Part shown: positions 31,495 to 45,840 of the stretch, one piece after another | How positions within the stretch are numbered: position 1 is the first letter of the stretch | Layout: each line of letters begins with the position of its first letter | Assembly (NCBI GenBank): GCA_964512835.1 | Contig: CAZELA010000001.1 | Coordinates: 105,372-169,371 of the forward strand | Length of the DNA: 64,000 nt | Direction of reading: 5' to 3' | Source of the DNA: an uncultured Candidatus Saccharibacteria bacterium | GTDB lineage: Bacteria; Patescibacteriota; Minisyncoccia; Phycocordibacterales; UBA2100 | Notes under the pieces: generated by a model | The model's input: the letters and a program-made list of their open reading frames with translations, nothing else | Databases searched by the model: none | Told to the model about the DNA's origin: nothing | Made by a program: the position numbers and the translations under genes

Positions 31495-32823
31495 CTAGTT
31501 CTGCAGCATGTTGTTCTTTGTCCAATAGTCGTATCGCCATTTGTACGACATGATCGGAAACCGTCGCCCCACCCACGCGAACATGCTGTGATTGTCCATA
31601 TAGAGAGCGTACTTTACATAGTTTGCATCAGTCGAGAGTAGTCGTTCTTCGCCGAGTGCACGACCCACGTAGATCGCGCATACGAGCAAGAACAAAATGC
31701 CTGACTGGATCGGATTCACGACACCTACCGCGTTCAGTACGGGGAAGTACAGGAGCGCCCACTGAAAACATTTTGATACATAGATGGGATGTCTGGTGAA
31801 CGCGAACGGTCCCGTTGTGATGATGCCGCGCATCGAGATGTTTGCTGCGCGGATACCCACGATCGCTTCGCCCCATAAGTGGATGATTGCGAAGAAAATG
31901 ATGAGCGCCGCGACGGCAAAAAGGATCATCGGTTGCGACAGTGTGTGATATGCCCACGCCGGAGTGCCGTTGTAGATCGCATCGGTTTCCGACGCGGGAA
32001 CGTAGCGCACCCATCCGCCGAAGAGCGCATTGTTGATCGGCGGATAGCAGGAGAGGTTGATCGCCCACGCAAACCACGTGCGGTCGACCTTTTTGAGTTC
32101 GGTGCCGATCAAGCGCGACGCAAAAATGTAGCCCGGCAAGATTGATCCGACGATCATGCCGAAGATCGCAAGATCAAGGCGTGAGACGAACGTGACGAAG
32201 TCGCCGGAGATATCGGGCAAACCGAATGCGCGAAGGTAATGGATGTACCATACGATCGCGTAGAAGTTGATCAGCAGGAAAAAGCATCGCAAGAGCCATT
32301 CACGAACGCCGTCAAAGAATATTTTCCATTCGATCTCGCGCACGCGCAGGCGTGCCAACAATCCGATCTGGAATGTGCCGTCGCGCTTTTCGCCGAGGAT
32401 ATATTCGGTCACGTAGATCAGAATGAACGACGCCGGTATAACGAACGTGAGTGTCGGAACAATCGCTTCGAAGAGGCGACGGAGGTTCGTTTGGTTATCG
32501 TACGCAGGGAATAGCCACACGAGAAAAAAGATGAATCCGATACCGACGAGCACTCCGAGGAATTTGGTGACGGTCGATTCGAGAACCTCTGTATGAGTGC
32601 GCTTCGGCCGATCGGCGACCTTCCACGGCGCCCGCATGATCTCGGAGGTGAAGAGGTAGGCGCATGTCAGCAGTGCGATTATGAGTGCGATGTAGACATC
32701 TGACGTTCCTGTCCGGTAGAGGGCCAGAAACACCGCATTGATGATGCCGACGGAAACGATCGGGTCGAACCATCGACCGACCGACATTCGGTAGATTTCC
32801 TGTTTCGTAGGCTGTGCTTCCAT
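31495..32823 (-). CDS. polytopic membrane protein with a C-terminal ICMT/PEMT-like methyltransferase domain
   Basis: GIITTGPFAFTRHPIYVS matches the isoprenylcysteine carboxyl / phospholipid methyltransferase motif; more than 8 TM helices. Confidence 0.5.
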   Translation of the reverse strand: MEAQPTKQEIYRMSVGRWFDPIVSVGIINAVFLALYRTGTSDVYIALIIALLTCAYLFTSEIMRAPWKVADRPKRTHTEVLESTVTKFLGVLVGIGFIFFLVWLFPAYDNQTNLRRLFEAIVPTLTFVIPASFILIYVTEYILGEKRDGTFQIGLLARLRVREIEWKIFFDGVREWLLRCFFLLINFYAIVWYIHYLRAFGLPDISGDFVTFVSRLDLAIFGMIVGSILPGYIFASRLIGTELKKVDRTWFAWAINLSCYPPINNALFGGWVRYVPASETDAIYNGTPAWAYHTLSQPMILFAVAALIIFFAIIHLWGEAIVGIRAANISMRGIITTGPFAFTRHPIYVSKCFQWALLYFPVLNAVGVVNPIQSGILFLLVCAIYVGRALGEERLLSTDANYVKYALYMDNHSMFAWVGRRFPIMSYKWRYDYWTKNNMLQN

Positions 32824-33009: not shown

Positions 33010-34977
33010 ATGGCAGCTCAATCCCGCACGAAGGGAATCGGATTTTCATTTTTGCAGACACTCGGCACGGCGTTCATCGCGCTCGTGCTCTTCGGATTTG
33101 CGATGTTGCTTGTGATGCGCGCGAATGCGCAGTTTTCTATGAATGATTCGCATGGCATCGCGAAACTTTTTACCGCGCGCGCAGACGGCGGAGGCGGCGA
33201 CTCGGGCGGCGGTGGTGACTCAGGTGGTGGAGGAGACAGCGGCGGCGGAGGGGATTCCGGCGGCGGAGGGGATTCCGGCGGAGGCGGCGACTCGGGCGGC
33301 GGCGGTGACTCAGGTGGTGGAGGAGACAGCGGCGGCGGCGACGGCGGCGGTTGTTCAGGCTGTGGCTGCGGCGGCTTCTGCTACCCGCAGTGTCCGGCGG
33401 GAACGACCGGTGTGTATCCCATCTGCATTCCGCAGACATGCCCGGCAGGAACAACCGGCACGTACCCGAACTGCACAACCATTCAGTGTCCGGCGGGAAC
33501 AACCGGCACCTACCCGAATTGCACGACGCTGCATTGTCCTGAAGGAACAACCGGCACGTACCCGAACTGCACGACCATTCAGTGCCCGGCGGGAACCACC
33601 GGTACCTATCCGAACTGCACGACGATCCAATGCCCGGCGGGAACGACGGGAACCTACCCGAACTGCACGACGATCACATGCCCTGCAGGTACAACGGGAA
33701 CGTATCCGAATTGCACACCAAACACGGGATGCATCGACGTGCTGAAGGAAACGTACAACACGCTCGGTCTTCCGATCATGCCGGTTGCACAGTTCTCGTT
33801 TAAGCTCGATGGGGGAACGCAGACCGTGTTCAACAACTCTGCCGGTAACGCACGATTCACCGGCGTCTCGGTCGGTGCACACACCGTAACGGAAACTCCG
33901 GTTGCCGGATGGGCACTTATTTCCACGACGCCGCAGGGCGGCATCGTAAATGTGCTTGCTGGTTCGCAGTGCGTGACGGTTGTATTCAAAAACAAGCAGG
34001 TTATCAACGAATGCCCGGCAGGAACGACAGGCACGTACCCGAACTGCACGACCATTCAGTGCCCGGCGGGAACCACCGGTACCTATCCGAACTGCACGAC
34101 GATCCAATGCCCGGCGGGAACGACGGGAACGTATCCGAATTGTGTTTCTATCCAGTGTCCGTCGGGTACAACGGGAACGTATCCTAATTGCGTCTCGATC
34201 CAATGTCCGGCAGGAACATACGGCACGTACCCGAACTGCATCCAAATCCTGTGCCCGGCCGGGTCAACCGGCACGTACCCGAACTGCTACACGCAGCAGT
34301 GTCCGGCAGGGACGTACGGAACCTATCCGAACTGCTACACGCAGCAGTGTCCGTCGGGAACCACCGGGACGTACCCGAATTGTTACTCGCAGCAGTGCCC
34401 CGCAGGAACCTACGGAACCTACCCGAACTGCGTCCAGATCTTGTGTCCTGCAGGTTCAACGGGAACCTACCCGAACTGCCTCACGCCGCAGGCTCCGTAC
34501 TGCACACTGACCGCAAACCCGACATTCGTTTCGCACGGTCAGAGCTCAACGCTGTTCTGGTCGTCGCAGAATGCGATCAACGCGCAGCTCTCATCGTTCG
34601 GAACGGTCGGTGTGAACGGCTCGACGAACGTATCGCCGTACCAGACGACGACGTACACACTCACCGTGTGGAACAATCAGGGCCAGCAGGCAACCTGCCA
34701 GACGACGGTGCAGTTGAACTATCAGCCGCCGTATAATCCGCCGACCTACTACCCGCCGCAGCCTCCGACGATTTATCCGCCGATCACGTACTACCCGCCG
34801 AGCATTCCCGTTTCAAACATCCCGTACACGGGAACGGGTTCGACGACCGGCAACGTGATCCTCATGAGTCTCATCGTTCTTGCATCAATCTCCGGTGCAT
34901 ACTTGATTCTGTACTCACGGGGCGGTGCACGGAACATGCTTGTCGAAGCGGGCATCCTGCAAACCTCGCGACTCTAG
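33010..34977 (+). CDS. repetitive cell-surface protein: (GGGGDS)x8 linker, 17 copies of a 16-aa CPAGTTGTYPNCTTIQ repeat, and a C-terminal IPYTG sorting signal
   Basis: N-terminal TM/signal; repeats read directly; C-terminal IPYTGTG + hydrophobic helix + YSRGG tail; adjacent to the sortase gene. Confidence 0.8.
   Translation: MAAQSRTKGIGFSFLQTLGTAFIALVLFGFAMLLVMRANAQFSMNDSHGIAKLFTARADGGGGDSGGGGDSGGGGDSGGGGDSGGGGDSGGGGDSGGGGDSGGGGDSGGGDGGGCSGCGCGGFCYPQCPAGTTGVYPICIPQTCPAGTTGTYPNCTTIQCPAGTTGTYPNCTTLHCPEGTTGTYPNCTTIQCPAGTTGTYPNCTTIQCPAGTTGTYPNCTTITCPAGTTGTYPNCTPNTGCIDVLKETYNTLGLPIMPVAQFSFKLDGGTQTVFNNSAGNARFTGVSVGAHTVTETPVAGWALISTTPQGGIVNVLAGSQCVTVVFKNKQVINECPAGTTGTYPNCTTIQCPAGTTGTYPNCTTIQCPAGTTGTYPNCVSIQCPSGTTGTYPNCVSIQCPAGTYGTYPNCIQILCPAGSTGTYPNCYTQQCPAGTYGTYPNCYTQQCPSGTTGTYPNCYSQQCPAGTYGTYPNCVQILCPAGSTGTYPNCLTPQAPYCTLTANPTFVSHGQSSTLFWSSQNAINAQLSSFGTVGVNGSTNVSPYQTTTYTLTVWNNQGQQATCQTTVQLNYQPPYNPPTYYPPQPPTIYPPITYYPPSIPVSNIPYTGTGSTTGNVILMSLIVLASISGAYLILYSRGGARNMLVEAGILQTSRL
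33187..33342 (+). repeat. 18-bp tandem repeat encoding (GGGGDS)n
   Basis: About 8.5 imperfect copies of ggcggNggNggNgaYtcN. Confidence 0.8.
33391..33729 (+). repeat. 48-bp tandem repeat array 1 (7 copies, CPAGTTGTYPNCTTIQ module)
   Basis: In-frame coding repeats. Confidence 0.8.
34012..34491 (+). repeat. 48-bp tandem repeat array 2 (10 copies of the same module, more diverged)
   Basis: In-frame coding repeats. Confidence 0.8.
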
Positions 34978-35044
34978 GCAAACCTGCCGCTTTCCGAAAA
35001 GGGAAGCGGCTTTTGCTTTGAGCGGATCGTCTGCTTGACAGCCT

Positions 35045-35072
35045 TGACAAATGTGTCGTAATGGCTTATAAT
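35045..35072 (+). promoter_or_regulatory. consensus sigma70 promoter TTGACA-16-TATAAT (second TTGACA copy at 35035)
   Basis: ccTTGACAaatgtgtcgtaatggctTATAATatggctATG; the first ATG overlaps the -10, so the transcript is probably leaderless from ATG 35079. Confidence 0.6.
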
Positions 35073-35822
35073 ATGGCTATGAATAAGGGTTTTCACCCCA
35101 AAGAGACAGGAAATAAGCCCCCGTTCGCCGTGTACCTCTCGGTGACGGTGATTCTGTTTGTGCTCACCCTTTCCGTTGCCGACTCCATCGGTCTCGTGCC
35201 CGACTACATCGACGGTACTCAGTCAGAACACATGGCAGTATCGGATTCACAGTCGAATTCTCCGGATGGTGATTGGAGCGAATTCGATCAGTCAGTCTCG
35301 GTTTCAAATCTGCCTGAGCTCGGCGAAGCGGTGTCGGCACCGACTCCCGTCGTAGAGCAGCAGCACTCAGCGGCGCTTTCGAAGCCGACGAAGATCCTGA
35401 TCCCGGCGATCGATATGAATCTTCCGGTACAGAATCCGTCGACCCGCGATCTCTCTGCGCTCGATACGCTGTTGCAGAAAGGTCCGGCTCGATACGTCGA
35501 TTCCGCAAAGCTTAACGAGCGGGGAAACGTCATCATCTTTGCTCACTCGTCGCATCTTCCCGTCGTACACAACCAGATGTACAAGGCGTTCAATCGTGTG
35601 CCTGAGCTCGTAAAGGGTGACACCATCACGCTCGTGGGAGACGACGGTCAAAAGTATCTCTACAGCGTGACATCGGTCCGAAAGGCGGATGCAAATGATG
35701 CAACGATCGACCTGTCTCCGCTCCACGGCACAAAGCTCACACTCGTCACGTGCGACACGCTCACGGGCAAAAGCGCACGCTTCATCTTAGAAGCAGACTT
35801 TATCGGCACCGTCGACCTGTAA
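35061..35822 (+). CDS. sortase (transpeptidase), membrane-anchored
   Basis: N-terminal TM; IFAHSSH His motif; TLVTCDTL catalytic Cys motif near the C-terminus; KILIPAIDMNLPV start of the beta-barrel; likely true start 35079 (MNKGF). Confidence 0.8.
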   Translation: MAYNMAMNKGFHPKETGNKPPFAVYLSVTVILFVLTLSVADSIGLVPDYIDGTQSEHMAVSDSQSNSPDGDWSEFDQSVSVSNLPELGEAVSAPTPVVEQQHSAALSKPTKILIPAIDMNLPVQNPSTRDLSALDTLLQKGPARYVDSAKLNERGNVIIFAHSSHLPVVHNQMYKAFNRVPELVKGDTITLVGDDGQKYLYSVTSVRKADANDATIDLSPLHGTKLTLVTCDTLTGKSARFILEADFIGTVDL

Positions 35823-35840: not shown

Positions 35841-36467
35841 ATGAAAAATCTCACCATCGCATTCGTAACCGTTTTCGCGCTCGCACTTCCTGCAATTGCA
35901 GATGCCGCATCGTATCCGACGGGTGGCTCGTACCGGACCGGTGTCTCGGCTCAGACCGGGGTACCGTGCTACTACGGCGGCTCTGCATTCACCGGCAGTT
36001 CCTATGCGACCGGAGTCTCGTATGACACAGGGGATTCGTATTCAACGGGATCGTCCTATCAGACCGGCTACTCCTATCCGACCGGTATGTCTGCCGGCCC
36101 GGTGGGCACGTCGTACACAACTGGTGTCTCTGCCGGCCGTGTCGGCACATCGTATGCGGTCGGTGTTTCGTACCCGACCGGATACTCCATGGCAACCGGC
36201 TCATCGGTTCCGACCGGATACTCGAGCGCAACATCACACCCGAAGGGAACGAAGTACGGTACACCAAACTACGCACAGTATTCGTATCCGAACTACTACA
36301 ACGAAACGCCTACGTACATGCAGGACTACACCGGCTACATGTATAACTCGTACTACCCGCAGCAGAATCAGTACACGGAGACTGTGGGTGGCATGGGCTA
36401 CGCGTACATGAACACCGCGCACTACGCATACGATCAGGTGACTGGTGTCTACTACATCAGCTACTAA
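35841..36467 (+). CDS. secreted Tyr/Gly/Ser/Thr-rich low-complexity protein
   Basis: Signal peptide; (S/T)Y.TG(V/Y)S repeats; Y-rich C-terminus; 18 nt after the sortase stop. Confidence 0.55.
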   Translation: MKNLTIAFVTVFALALPAIADAASYPTGGSYRTGVSAQTGVPCYYGGSAFTGSSYATGVSYDTGDSYSTGSSYQTGYSYPTGMSAGPVGTSYTTGVSAGRVGTSYAVGVSYPTGYSMATGSSVPTGYSSATSHPKGTKYGTPNYAQYSYPNYYNETPTYMQDYTGYMYNSYYPQQNQYTETVGGMGYAYMNTAHYAYDQVTGVYYISY

Positions 36468-41599: not shown

Positions 41600-41659
41600 A
41601 TCTGCGGTCTCTTTCCGTACAGGAGAGGGTTTTACAGTCACACAAACATGGGAGGCGTA

Positions 41660-42301
41660 ATGGCCGCTCCGGTATCACCGGGATCGCGATGGCGTATCCC
41701 GATCGTCACACCGCAGCCGTATGTCGTGCCACCTCGGCCCGTGCATGCAGCTGCTCCGGTAGTTTCCAACCAACAGCCTTCCTCGCACGAAGATGCGCGT
41801 ATGCGCGGCTTCGAGGACGGCAGGGCATATCAACGAAATGGAGGTCAGAATATGTCTGCGAAGGCCGACGACCACGGACATCACGGCAGCGGTCCGCCCG
41901 AGGGGGTAAAAAAGGCCCTCTGGTGGATCGGGGTGATCCTGATTGCGTTCCTGTTGTTCAATTGGTTCACGACCGCCTGGGATCGGTTCACCGATCCTGT
42001 CGGCTTCCGCGCCAATGAACAGCAGCGCGTGATCGACGATCTGAAGGATCGTCTGCGCGCGTACCAAAGCGGCGATGTCGGTCCGAGCCCTCGCGGTGGC
42101 ACGGGCGGCAACATCTCGCGGCTCGGAAACAACAATGCGCCTCGTCAACCGACGGCACAGGAGATCTGGGATCGTACGTTCCATCGCACGACCAGTACCT
42201 GCGCCCCGTGCGATCAGACCAGGGGATGGAATTACATCCAGGACCCCGAAACCTGTCAGTGCGATGCGGCTCGGTGGCGGCCTGGTCCGCCCCCGCGCTA
42301 A
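41660..42301 (+). CDS. single-pass membrane protein with a C-terminal Cys4 domain (CAPCDQTRGWNYIQDPETCQCD), paralog A
   Basis: GGGAGG RBS before ATG 41660; central TM helix; the last 34 aa are identical to 42482..42979. Confidence 0.6.
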   Translation: MAAPVSPGSRWRIPIVTPQPYVVPPRPVHAAAPVVSNQQPSSHEDARMRGFEDGRAYQRNGGQNMSAKADDHGHHGSGPPEGVKKALWWIGVILIAFLLFNWFTTAWDRFTDPVGFRANEQQRVIDDLKDRLRAYQSGDVGPSPRGGTGGNISRLGNNNAPRQPTAQEIWDRTFHRTTSTCAPCDQTRGWNYIQDPETCQCDAARWRPGPPPR

Positions 42302-42481: not shown

Positions 42482-42979
42482 ATGAACAGGCTTATCGTTG
42501 CTCTCTGTGCGATTGCGTTCTTCGCATTCGCATCGCTCGGCACGGCGTCCGCGCAATACGGAGCCGGTGTCGGCACCGGCGGTACCATGGCTCTTCGCCA
42601 GGGCGTTCCGCATGCCCAGACTGTCTACGAGGACCAATGTCGGCGCATCGGTGCATATAACCATCCGATGTGCATGACCGGTCAGCGTCGTGGTCACGGC
42701 CATGGTGTTCAGGGCCGTCGCGTGATCCCGGTTTTCGCGACCGGCGCACACTACGACCGTCGCGTGGCAGCTGGGCACTACGGCCGCACAGCCGTGGTTC
42801 GCCCCGTGGCACCCCCGCCGCCCCCGCCTTCGGCACAGCAGATCTACTCTGCAGTGCCGCACAAGACGGTCAGCGTCTGCGCCCCGTGCGATCAGACCAG
42901 GGGATGGAATTACATCCAGGACCCCGAAACCTGTCAGTGCGATGCGGCTCGGTGGCGGCCTGGTCCGCCCCCGCGCTAA
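42482..42979 (+). CDS. secreted protein with a C-terminal Cys4 domain, paralog B
   Basis: AAGAGGAG RBS; signal peptide; His/Arg/Gly-rich middle; Pro7 linker; identical C-terminal 34 aa. Confidence 0.65.
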   Translation: MNRLIVALCAIAFFAFASLGTASAQYGAGVGTGGTMALRQGVPHAQTVYEDQCRRIGAYNHPMCMTGQRRGHGHGVQGRRVIPVFATGAHYDRRVAAGHYGRTAVVRPVAPPPPPPSAQQIYSAVPHKTVSVCAPCDQTRGWNYIQDPETCQCDAARWRPGPPPR

Positions 42980-44340: not shown

Positions 44341-45840
44341 ATGACAAATGTATCGAAAAACATGCTCTTTGCCTTCTTGGTCGCCGTAAGTGCAACAGTG
44401 CTTTCATTGGGTGCATTTGCCACGACTGTTCACGCAGCTGACTTCGACGGAGGTTCCTTCGACGGAGGCGGCTGGTACGACGCCGGCTCATTCGGCGGCG
44501 GTGGTTTCTACGACGCGGGTTCGTACTCCGGTTCCGACTGGTACGATGCCGGTTCGTACAACAATGGCGGTTTCTACGACGCGGGTTCGTACAGCGGCGA
44601 TTTCTACGACGCTGGCTCACAGAACAGCGGTTGGTATGACGCCGGTTCACCGAATGGCGGCTGGTACGATGCCTCGACCGGTTACTGGGAGACTGACTCG
44701 TACAATCCGGGCTACTATGAAAAGGATTCGTACAACCCTGGGTATTATGAGACTGACTCCTACAATCCTGGTTACTACGAAACTGATTCGTACAACCCTG
44801 GTACCTATCAGACTGATTCGTACGTAAGCTCGTACATGGATCAGTACGCAGCAGGCAACCCGATCATGTCGGGCGGCAGCTACGGAGGTGGTTCGTACGG
44901 CGGTGGCTACACCACCGGCGGTGGGTACAGCATGCCGAGCATCAGCACCGGCGGCTGCACGACCTGCCACTCACAGAGCTACCCGAAGCCTGTTCCGACT
45001 CCGGTCTGCACAACCTGCAATCATCCAGTCCCGACTCCGACCTGCACGACCTGCGGCGGATCAAGCGTGACTAACACGAACATGTGGATCGATAACTCGA
45101 TCATCGACAACTCGATCAACGGTTCGTTCAACACCACGATCAAGGACAGCTACAACACGACCATGCTTACTCCGGTCGTACCGCAGCAGCCGATCGTGTA
45201 CACCCAGCCGGCACCGTACTGTGTGATCACCTTGCAGAATGCGGGTGCATACACGGCACAGGCAACGCTCGTATGGTCCTCGACGAATGCACAGTCCGCG
45301 TACATTACGCAGGTGGGTTCTGTAGCTCCGAACGGCACTCGAGTTGTTACCGGCTTCGCGAATCAGATGTACTCGCTCACGGTTACCGGTCAGGGCGGCA
45401 CCTACACGTGCAATACCCAGCCGTACACCCCGACGTACATCCCGCAGGCTCCGATCACACCGTCTGTCTCGCTCACGCAGATCCCGTACACGGGTCTCGC
45501 ACTGAGCCCGATGGCACAGGCGATGTACTGGCTCGCGCTCCTCTCGGTCGCAGCAGCAGGTGGTTACTTGCTCGTCTACTACAAGGGAGGCGCACTTGCT
45601 CTCGCAGGTGCAATGAACCGCCTGACTGCGCAGGCAGGCCGACAGAATCACTTCGTCGTCTCTGAACAGGAGACCGAGGAAGTGATTACTCCGGAAGCAG
45701 TTGAGACCGAAGAGGTCGCAGCTCCGACCGTAGACGCAATGAGCTTCCTCCCTGCGATGCAGGAAATGAAGACCCGAGATGTCATGTCGGTCATGCACTC
45801 GGAAGACGGAACCCCGCGACTCGTCATCGCACGCGCGTAA
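44341..45840 (+). CDS. secreted repeat protein with an IPYTG sorting-signal-like segment, a TM helix and an about 80-aa C-terminal tail
   Basis: Signal peptide; (F/W)YDAGS and DSYNPGYYET repeats; Cys/Pro/Thr spacer (CTTC x3); a domain alignable to the C-terminal domain of 33010..34977; TQIPYTGLALSP + TM + YYKGG. Confidence 0.75.
   Translation: MTNVSKNMLFAFLVAVSATVLSLGAFATTVHAADFDGGSFDGGGWYDAGSFGGGGFYDAGSYSGSDWYDAGSYNNGGFYDAGSYSGDFYDAGSQNSGWYDAGSPNGGWYDASTGYWETDSYNPGYYEKDSYNPGYYETDSYNPGYYETDSYNPGTYQTDSYVSSYMDQYAAGNPIMSGGSYGGGSYGGGYTTGGGYSMPSISTGGCTTCHSQSYPKPVPTPVCTTCNHPVPTPTCTTCGGSSVTNTNMWIDNSIIDNSINGSFNTTIKDSYNTTMLTPVVPQQPIVYTQPAPYCVITLQNAGAYTAQATLVWSSTNAQSAYITQVGSVAPNGTRVVTGFANQMYSLTVTGQGGTYTCNTQPYTPTYIPQAPITPSVSLTQIPYTGLALSPMAQAMYWLALLSVAAAGGYLLVYYKGGALALAGAMNRLTAQAGRQNHFVVSEQETEEVITPEAVETEEVAAPTVDAMSFLPAMQEMKTRDVMSVMHSEDGTPRLVIARA
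44452..44821 (+). repeat. in-frame tandem repeats (about 21-24 bp YDAGS units, then 30-bp DSYNPGYYET units)
   Basis: Read directly from the sequence and its translation. Confidence 0.7.

Follow-up and report, generated by a model that had tools for sequence, protein, structure and literature searches.

Sortase-anchored repeat-stalk proteins of the LPXTG type in Gram-positive bacteria (MSCRAMM-like, SdrD and CnaB/SpaA proteins) share a secretion signal, a stalk, a proline-rich wall segment and a C-terminal pentapeptide followed by a transmembrane (TM) helix and a basic tail, with a sortase gene located next to them. Bacteria of the candidate phyla radiation (CPR, or Patescibacteria) are thought to live attached to other cells; to our knowledge, almost nothing is known about their surface proteins, most of which have no family assignment. 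Peregrinibacteria, which belong to the CPR, carry large cysteine-rich extracellular proteins (about 1,655 amino acids (aa) on average) for which rigidity or attachment has been proposed (PMC4736985). Here we describe a repeat-protein gene at positions 33010-34977 on the forward strand of a 64-kb stretch of contig CAZELA010000001.1 (hereafter the window; all coordinates refer to this whole stretch). The encoded protein of 655 aa carries an IPYTG sorting signal, is encoded beside a sortase gene and contains 17 copies of a small two-cysteine module, the 12-residue core of which is undescribed in Pfam, NCBIfam, the PDB and the literature that we searched. DNA loci and contigs of relatives are labelled L, database proteins P.

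The open reading frame (ORF) and a pattern count confirmed the layout given by the first-pass annotation, namely a perfect (GGGGDS)x8 linker, seven plus ten units separated by a 95-aa insert, and 34 cysteines in the arrays. The frame starting at 33010 is the coding frame, because the first two codon positions of the 17 units are 94% identical and the third only 51%; codon-position statistics also ruled out an overlapping ORF in another frame as the real gene. Array A consists of seven units of 16 aa (aa 128-239, 33391-33726) and was seen in pattern matches, with Tandem Repeats Finder (TRF) and as hairpins in AlphaFold2 (AF2) models. Array B consists of ten such units (aa 335-494, 34012-34491) and has a higher-order period of 192 bp (four units). 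Each unit reads C-P-x-G-x-x-G-x-Y-P-x-C plus a linker of four residues, in a strict 48-bp period. A degenerate DNA pattern of the core matched 17 times in the window, each time within the gene and in phase, compared to 0.00 expected matches (100 shuffles). TRF confirmed the periodicity, with periods of 48, 96, 144 and 192 bp and an 18-bp repeat in the linker. The tandem repeats of 48 and 18 bp described previously were thus recovered, although their copies match by only 72-82%.

The C-terminus carries the sorting signal (aa 604-655, 34819-34977), which comprises IPYTG (aa 604-608), the hydrophobic stretch NVILMSLIVLASISGAYLILY, modelled by AF2 as a helix (aa 612-636), and a basic tail containing SRGGAR. 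In an alignment of six C-termini, including four relatives and a second protein of the window (44341-45840), the residues P-Y-T-G are invariant. A gene encoding a TM-anchored sortase (35061-35822, +; Pfam Sortase, E 1.7e-17; motifs FAHSS, TLVTC and RF) starts 83 bp past the repeat gene, and this adjacency is kept in at least four other genomes; it is seen in L001, L002, L005 and L009-L014. From its position, the sortase is presumed to be the processing enzyme of the repeat protein. The order pheT - gyrB - ... - repeat protein - sortase - 208-aa SYxTG protein is shared by L001 (GCA_034680565.1), L002 (GCA_947085915.1), L005 (a Candidatus Paceibacteria metagenome-assembled genome (MAG)) and seven Joint Genome Institute (JGI) contigs. 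Orthologues of the repeat gene are found at the syntenic loci L001, L002, L003, L004 and L005, and the gene is 100% identical in the independent assemblies L009 and L010. The first-pass annotation had called the product a surface protein; the pentapeptide, the TM helix, the basic tail and the adjacent sortase put this on stronger ground.

Next to the arrays, the protein has several further segments. A putative signal peptide or membrane anchor (aa 1-40, 33010-33129) was read from the sequence as a basic start and a long hydrophobic stretch ending at the candidate cleavage site ANA/Q; AF2 places a helix at aa 14-38, and the hydrophobic helix is 28 residues long. A second motif of the form A-x-A-[D/E/Q]-G (ARA/D, aa 55-59, 33172-33186) follows a hydrophobic patch directly before the glycine linker, 15-20 residues past the first candidate signal-peptidase site. 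In the present protein the distance is 17 residues. The motif is kept in 5/5 aligned orthologues and may be the real cleavage site or a second processing site. The units of the (GGGGDS)x8 linker (aa 60-107, 33187-33330) differ in their codons, and a 90-bp higher-order repeat is present; AF2 gave this segment a predicted local distance difference test score (pLDDT) below 50. Counterparts rich in Gly, Asp and Ser are present in L005, P0001, P0002 and P0006. A segment CSGCGCGGFCYPQ (aa 115-127, 33352-33390), with four cysteines clustered in CSGCGCGGFC, precedes array A.

The insert between the arrays (aa 240-334, 33727-34011) is probably a prealbumin-like domain of the SpaA/CnaB type. In Pfam it matched SpaA_4 (E 0.0026) and SpaA (E 0.0092) below threshold, with bit scores of 19.0 and 16.6 against gathering cut-offs of 27.3 and 23.1 for SpaA/SpaA_4, and the relatives P0009 and P0236 contain significant SpaA or SdrD_B domains. 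Its pLDDT was below 50, and a PDB sequence search with the insert returned only chance matches (phycobiliproteins, Caf1M). The insert is missing from P0002 and from the alleles L013 and L014. Following array B, an Ig-like domain (aa 495-567, 34492-34710) was modelled with a pLDDT of 95-97 as a β-sandwich of seven strands. Foldseek matched it with probability 1.00 to SoxYZ, PKD and CEACAM folds (target-relative template modelling (TM) score 0.5-0.64) and with 0.87-0.97 to CARDB (TM score 0.33-0.38); with the full-length model, only generic Ig-like folds for this domain were found and no specific family. Its two cysteines, C498 and C563, stand one at each end and are invariant in the C-terminal alignment, and L005 has four copies of the domain. 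The segment rich in Pro and Tyr that follows (PPxY-like, aa 568-603, 34711-34818), read from the sequence, is of the same kind but of differing length among orthologues, with a Pfam Extensin_1 match in P0001, and is presumed to be the wall-spanning region. In total the protein contains 42 cysteines (34 in the arrays, four in the cluster and two each in the insert and the C-terminal domain), an even number in every domain.

To our first-pass annotation the module was unfamiliar. This was correct in that Pfam and NCBIfam scans of the whole 655-aa protein returned 0 families, a six-unit fragment gave only noise in Pfam at E<=10 (PRD1_P5_spike_N at 0.006 over 18 aa, DUF7385 at 1.7, EGF1_RECK at 3.2) and a full-text literature search for the motif strings gave one irrelevant match. 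Publications on CPR bacteria, sortases, cysteine-rich proteins and hairpin stalks offered no more than background. However, this protein is not alone in carrying the module. Among 5.8 billion protein sequences searched, 113 hits share a C-P-x-G-x-x-G-x-[Y/F/P]-P-[N/D]-C core, and a six-unit profile hidden Markov model (HMM) searched against 1.84 billion cluster representatives matched 547 proteins at E<=1e-3, 203 at E<=1e-10 and 40 at E<=1e-30, so that it recurs in about 550 clusters. The family is real and widespread but rare.

Across this family the core is fixed and the linker is not. All 472 cores in the 113 homologues have the same C-x10-C length, whereas the spacing between cores was 16 (101 cases), 18 (67), 17 (43) or 19 (36) residues, or else 13 or 20-22. 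The same fixed core with a varying period was seen in another 672 cores, taken from the top 150 representatives. Linkers range from 1 to 10 residues, different periods are mixed within one array, and single units occur between Ig-like or other domains; core positions 3, 5 and 6 and the linker vary widely. In P0015, with units of period 13, the cores are joined as C-R-C, and because of such junctions a disulfide between units is unlikely.

The proteins that carry the module are diverse. Arrays often lie at the extreme C-terminus of HMM-matched proteins of 1,000-2,000 aa. Carriers include other PYTG-anchored CPR proteins, DUF11 proteins, PG_binding_1 proteins of Paceibacterota, proteins with FecR and a TbpB/Slam-like barrel in Sulfuricurvum kujiense (Sulku_2095) and Sulfurospirillaceae, and the C-terminal tails of class A penicillin-binding proteins. 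Among the 113 hits, at least 12 were PG_binding_1 proteins and seven were PBP1A tails. A Pfam census of 40 members found solely extracytoplasmic partners, namely DUF11, Ig-like domains of the BACON, HYDIN, CARDB and PapD-like types, SdrD_B/SpaA, subtilase, Calx-beta, autotransporter, TbpB barrel, FecR, ricin lectin and PG_binding_1. Among 2.9 million viral contigs, one carried the module (L016, IMGVR_UViG_3300020472_002327). There, a 653-aa protein (2840-4801 of L016) has five CPxGxxGT[PY]PxC units after low-complexity sequence rich in Asn and Ser, and its gene lies within a co-directional block that was taken to be structural genes.

Structure prediction gave one β-hairpin per unit. In the full-length AF2 model (36 aligned sequences, mean pLDDT 60), the hairpin strands in arrays A and B lie at unit positions 5-8 and 11-14 (pLDDT about 70-77), and a separate run on six units with 21 aligned array fragments again gave hairpins, with a pLDDT of 84.9 for the best model. 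Searched against the PDB with Foldseek, the module fragment matched only the EGFR/HER2 ectodomain, at chance level (E 9.7). We infer from the sequences that C1 and C12 of each core form a disulfide with each other, because the core length is constant, the linker measures 1-10 residues, single units are viable, the cysteine count is even and the context is extracytoplasmic.

The substitution pattern indicates how strongly the units are constrained. Compared to L003, which is 89% identical in DNA, 46/112 codons of array A differ, and all 46 differences are synonymous with 0 non-synonymous, linkers included; the last six units of array B show 29 synonymous changes and one non-synonymous change. 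These codon counts point to very strong purifying selection on the unit peptide including its linkers. The architecture, on the other hand, varies between orthologues. We found 7+10, 7+9, at least 4+11, about 10+0, 2+5 and about 13 units, while the C-terminal anchor cassette is constant. L003 has seven units, the insert and nine units, L004 at least four, the insert and 11, and L005 about ten units and the insert without a second array, followed by its four Ig-like domains; P0001 has two plus five units with an extra insert, and P0002 about 13 units without the insert. The length variation that had been considered possible for this gene is thus present between orthologues. That unit number and domain content vary freely while the anchor cassette stays constant would suit a spacer. 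Moreover, P0006 combines an 11-unit array with VPYTG beside thrS-dnaE (L006/L007), and the same position in the window is held by the IPYTG protein at 44341-45840, which has other repeats. The repeat passenger is therefore exchangeable on the constant anchor cassette.

The interpretation we lean towards, and hold to be just on the probable side, is that of a wall-anchored surface protein that consists mainly of a stalk of hairpin beads, each closed by a disulfide, the module being a general-purpose rigid extracytoplasmic connector. The neighbouring sortase would most likely attach the protein covalently to the cell wall through IPYTG. From the wall outward, the Pro/Tyr-rich segment would then be followed by the Ig-like domain, ten units, the SpaA-like domain and seven units, with the four-cysteine cluster and a floppy acidic (GGGGDS)8 tail outermost. 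Each unit would be an autonomous 12-residue C-P-x-G-x-x-G-x-Y-P-N-C loop, in which the two cysteines would most likely bond to each other and which would fold, as the models suggest, into a small β-hairpin. Strings of such beads with short linkers could form a stiff, protease-resistant stalk or spacer that keeps other domains off the wall, and the same module would play this spacer part in many unrelated extracytoplasmic proteins.

Several points weigh against this interpretation. Purifying selection on every surface residue, linkers as well, exceeds what a passive spacer would need and fits a binding surface, and the mature N-terminal tip lacks a globular 'business end' for the stalk to present. 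The five six-unit AF2 models span a pLDDT of 55-85, with a predicted template modelling score (pTM) of 0.42, and the disulfide connectivity follows from sequence logic and not from a model-level observation. No disulfide oxidoreductase of the Dsb or thioredoxin type was found in the 64-kb window by CxxC pattern or Pfam, a weak point as the window is a small part of the genome. In addition, the 655-aa protein matched no NCBIfam family at E<=0.1, and the LPXTG-anchor model, assumed to be in that library, was silent.

In the main alternative, the arrays would themselves be the functional surface: a repetitive face rich in Thr, Tyr, Asn and Gln would bind a polymer such as host or own wall glycan, peptidoglycan or a mineral, and the protein would be an adhesin of an episymbiotic CPR cell. 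The absence of any non-synonymous change in array A agrees with this, as does the fact that about half of the mature protein consists of arrays, with no other obvious tip domain. The module also often accompanies peptidoglycan-related proteins, as the PG_binding_1 proteins and PBP1A tails counted above illustrate, and cysteine-rich extracellular proteins of CPR bacteria have been proposed to act in attachment (PMC4736985). However, single units between unrelated domains, and the FecR/β-barrel proteins of free-living Campylobacterota, fit a connector better. The wide differences across the family at positions 3, 5 and 6 and in the linker also speak against a binding surface, and sequence and structure searches found no similarity to lectins or carbohydrate-binding modules. 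We regard a binding role as possible, though rather doubtful.

The first-pass annotation had left the choice between a disulfide-stapled mini-module and a metal-binding repeat. The former is now the best reading, as argued above, whereas metal binding found no support. If the cysteine pairs were reduced, they could bind metal ions (Fe, Zn, Cu or chalcophilic metals) outside the cell. The 34 regularly spaced cysteines and the lack of a Dsb-like gene in the window would agree with this, and many CPR bacteria occur in anoxic groundwater, where extracellular thiols could persist. However, ligand patterns with His, Asp or CxxC are missing, and a fixed C-x10-C spacing in which Pro and Gly are invariant is what one would expect of a structural loop. 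A multi-cysteine site would not be kept together by linkers of 1-10 residues. Furthermore, Sulfuricurvum, a diderm in which a working Dsb system is assumed, also has the module in proteins of its periplasm or surface. Metal binding is therefore improbable.

Short repeats rich in Thr and Cys, with a constant period of 16 aa in this protein, also recall the disulfide-braced β-solenoid of the Tenebrio antifreeze protein, which is built of 12-residue TCT repeats. A solenoid needs regular coils, though, and the period in the family runs from 13 to 22 even within one array, with single units occurring as well. As AF2 also gave hairpins and not coils, we consider this fold very improbable for the arrays.

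A dedicated adjacent sortase, a SpaA-like domain and a second IPYTG protein 9 kb away could also mean that the sortase polymerises the protein into a pilus. The sequence argues otherwise. There is no pilin motif with a YPKN-type lysine, since the module reads YPNC, and Lys occurs just six times in the whole protein. Orthologues can also do without the SpaA-like domain. The sortase scored below the cut-off of every NCBIfam sortase class, with 23.7 bits against a cut-off of 160 for the class C model; its best scores, including those of the class E, F and GN models, were weak as well (27-34 bits against cut-offs of 39-166). A pilus subunit is accordingly highly unlikely.

Next we considered how the repeat units evolved and whether their layout could be an assembly artefact. 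Of the same-residue codon pairs among the 17 units, 48% use unlike codons. The longest exact internal repeats in the gene and its relatives are 38 bp or shorter (35 bp in the window gene), except for one repeat of 101 bp, here called R. By these measures the units are old and not products of recent slippage. The proposal that the repeats are prone to slippage proved largely wrong, because the units are scrambled at synonymous sites and the exact repeats other than R are short. Likewise, array B had been taken for the older array, which could not be established: array B has the 192-bp higher-order structure, but units B1 and B2 are of the A type, and B2 and A5 share exactly the same DNA sequence (100% identity), suggesting a recent exchange between arrays A and B. 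When compared to L003, only 9/95 codons of the insert differ, whereas the flanks diverge more (41% of array-A codons, and 26-31% of those in array B and the C-terminal part). This suggests that the insert segment was recently exchanged between lineages or is under unusual constraint at the nucleotide level.

Repeat R is an exact direct repeat that connects the two arrays. Copy 1 (33553-33653, +) covers the end of A4, all of A5 and the start of A6 and forms the upstream junction of a deletion allele, and copy 2 (34030-34130, +), 477 bp downstream and in phase, covers the end of B1, all of B2 and the start of B3. A query with the C-terminal 162 aa found P0359, a database protein of 178 aa identical to the end of our protein. 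Seven JGI metagenomes of a single project supplied its contigs, L009-L015. Over 8.5 kb, L009 and L010, which were assembled from two other samples, agree with the window at every position (100% identity) and contain the whole gene with 7 + insert + 10. In contrast, L013 and L014 follow the window exactly as far as 33653 and then resume it at 34030, which corresponds to an exact in-frame deletion of 477 bp through R. The protein they encode is 496 aa long and has its 13 units in one uninterrupted array without the insert, so that copy number and the presence of the insert differ between assemblies of the same population too (17 versus 13 units). Three further contigs (L011, L012 and L015) either begin or become chimeric at 34071-34108, within R or on its border, and two contigs of species-representative MAGs end within the gene. 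Upstream of the R break, the DNA of L012 (1-3213, with MutL_C and PMT_2 genes) and L011 (1-365) is unlike the window; these are probably chimeric joins via R. Because the full and deletion alleles show no other differences, a real recombinant allele and an assembler mis-join look the same in the contigs. A search for R in JGI metagenome contigs gave 0 matches, the relevant samples evidently being outside that collection.

These breaks and joins at R, together with the MAG contigs that end inside the gene, are what speaks for the 7 + insert + 10 architecture being an assembly artefact. We see hardly any chance of this, because the two further samples reproduce the window exactly, because L003 and L004 share the layout without having a long exact repeat, and because units that are diverged in DNA cannot collapse except at R. 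R is the sole obvious substrate for recombination or mis-assembly in the gene, and at most unit B2 and the deletion allele are doubtful in the assembly. A bolder proposal, which we hold to be unlikely, is that the module is a self-sufficient disulfide bead and that R is also a real in-frame recombination switch between two architectures. If so, the switch would remove or restore the SpaA-like domain together with four units (655 aa with 17 units and insert, versus 496 aa with 13 units), and the bead, reused as a rigid connector across CPR, Campylobacterota and at least one phage, would rank with the smallest autonomous modules known from the outside of bacterial cells. A precursor of a ribosomally synthesised and post-translationally modified peptide was rejected, as no maturase genes lie nearby and a sorting signal is present.

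The gene is also poorly represented in databases. An exact-sequence look-up of the 655-aa protein found no record in a collection of 15 billion proteins, because gene calls are shortened and MAG contigs break in the gene. In the seven JGI contigs the gene call spans only the last 178 aa, from a TTG start inside B10, although the ORF of L009 and L010 is intact, and the relatives P0360 and P0363 have likewise shortened calls. The annotation pipeline apparently masks or passes over the repeats.

Around the gene we noted the following. A terminator-like hairpin (34986-35010, +) with a 10-bp stem, seven GC pairs and a T-run lies between the repeat gene and the sortase gene and was found by a consensus scan only. 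The same kind of scan found a σ70 consensus promoter (12/12, TTGACA-17-TATAAT, 35044-35081) with its -10 box inside the annotated sortase start. The L005 sortase orthologue begins with MNKGF, which corresponds to 35079 in the window, 7 nt past the -10 box; by its sequence, the sortase mRNA may be leaderless and the real start at 35079. Downstream of the sortase is a gene for a secreted 208-aa protein (35841-36467, +) with about 20 S-Y-x-T-G pentads (SYPTG, SYRTG, SYATG and others) and a tail rich in Tyr, Asn and Gln. It directly follows the sortase in L001, L002, L005 and L009 and has no family match in Pfam or NCBIfam. The pentad loosely resembles the PYTG sorting motif; any idea that this protein serves the sortase as an acceptor, a decoy or a substrate is purely speculative. 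The second candidate sortase substrate (44341-45840, +) has an Ig-like domain, IPYTG, a TM helix and KGG, followed by a tail of about 100 aa, while its N-terminal part contains FYDAGS and DSYNPGYYE[TK] repeats and CTTC motifs; the window thus holds at least two candidate substrates. Two neighbouring small proteins (41648-42301, + and 42482-42979, +) have a 33-aa four-cysteine tail in common, CAPCDQTRGWNYIQDPETCQCDAARWRPGPPPR, with only a weak, sub-threshold Pfam match to the VEGF heparin-binding domain. The gene on the upstream side of the repeat gene is divergent (31495-32823, -) and encodes a polytopic membrane protein of 442 aa with a weak C-terminal match of the ICMT/DUF1295-like (methyltransferase) type; it occupies this position also in L002, L005 and L009, though not in L001.

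GyrB shares up to 95% identity with database proteins, and the closest of its named matches (about 81-86%) are labelled Candidatus Paceibacterota, Kaiserbacteria and Parcubacteria. From these labels we place the host among CPR bacteria of the Paceibacterota/Kaiserbacteria type; two close MAGs carry the depositor label 'Saccharibacteria'. The locus thus supplies a sortase with IPYTG-type substrates in Paceibacterota and is a clear case of repeat genes lost from databases. The unannotated two-cysteine module could become a Pfam-style model covering several hundred clusters of extracytoplasmic proteins and, should it be a disulfide bead, would be attractive as a minimal rigid linker in protein engineering. 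No surprising mechanism was shown, and the case of recombination or mis-assembly at R is testable.

Among known systems, the eukaryotic EGF-like, TNFR, furin-like and GCC2_GCC3 repeats follow the same concept of tiny disulfide-stapled β-hairpins in tandem that build extracellular rods, and the module shares a local C-P-x-G-T-Y resemblance with the 'CPxGTY' of GCC2_GCC3. However, EGF-like, TNFR and furin-like repeats have a pattern of 4-6 cysteines, whereas the module has two in a 12-residue core and is thus not a member. The Myxococcus cysteine-rich repeat and the cysteine-rich proteins of Peregrinibacteria are also bacterial, extracellular and repetitive, but differ in motif and length, and their Pfam and NCBIfam models did not match. 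The β-helical antifreeze protein of Tenebrio molitor likewise consists of short Thr/Cys-rich repeats with one disulfide per repeat, as we infer for the module. In contrast to that protein, the module varies in period, has units that stand alone, is predicted to form hairpins and gave no structural match. Single-substrate sortase pairs (class GN, 'marine') resemble the locus in having a dedicated sortase beside the presumed substrate; here the class scores are far below the cut-offs and the window has more than one candidate substrate. In overall plan the protein, with its candidate secretion signal and a SpaA-like insert that scores below threshold, matches the LPXTG-type proteins described at the outset. 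Unlike these, the present protein has an IPYTG motif on which the LPXTG-anchor model is silent, a sortase of no defined class and a CPR host, and its stalk is made of 16-aa units with two cysteines, while MSCRAMM-like stalks are made of Ig-like domains of about 90-110 aa with isopeptide bonds. Sortase-anchored repeat proteins and cysteine-rich extracellular repeats are thus known kinds, and what is new is the module and that it occurs in a CPR bacterium beside a sortase of no defined class.

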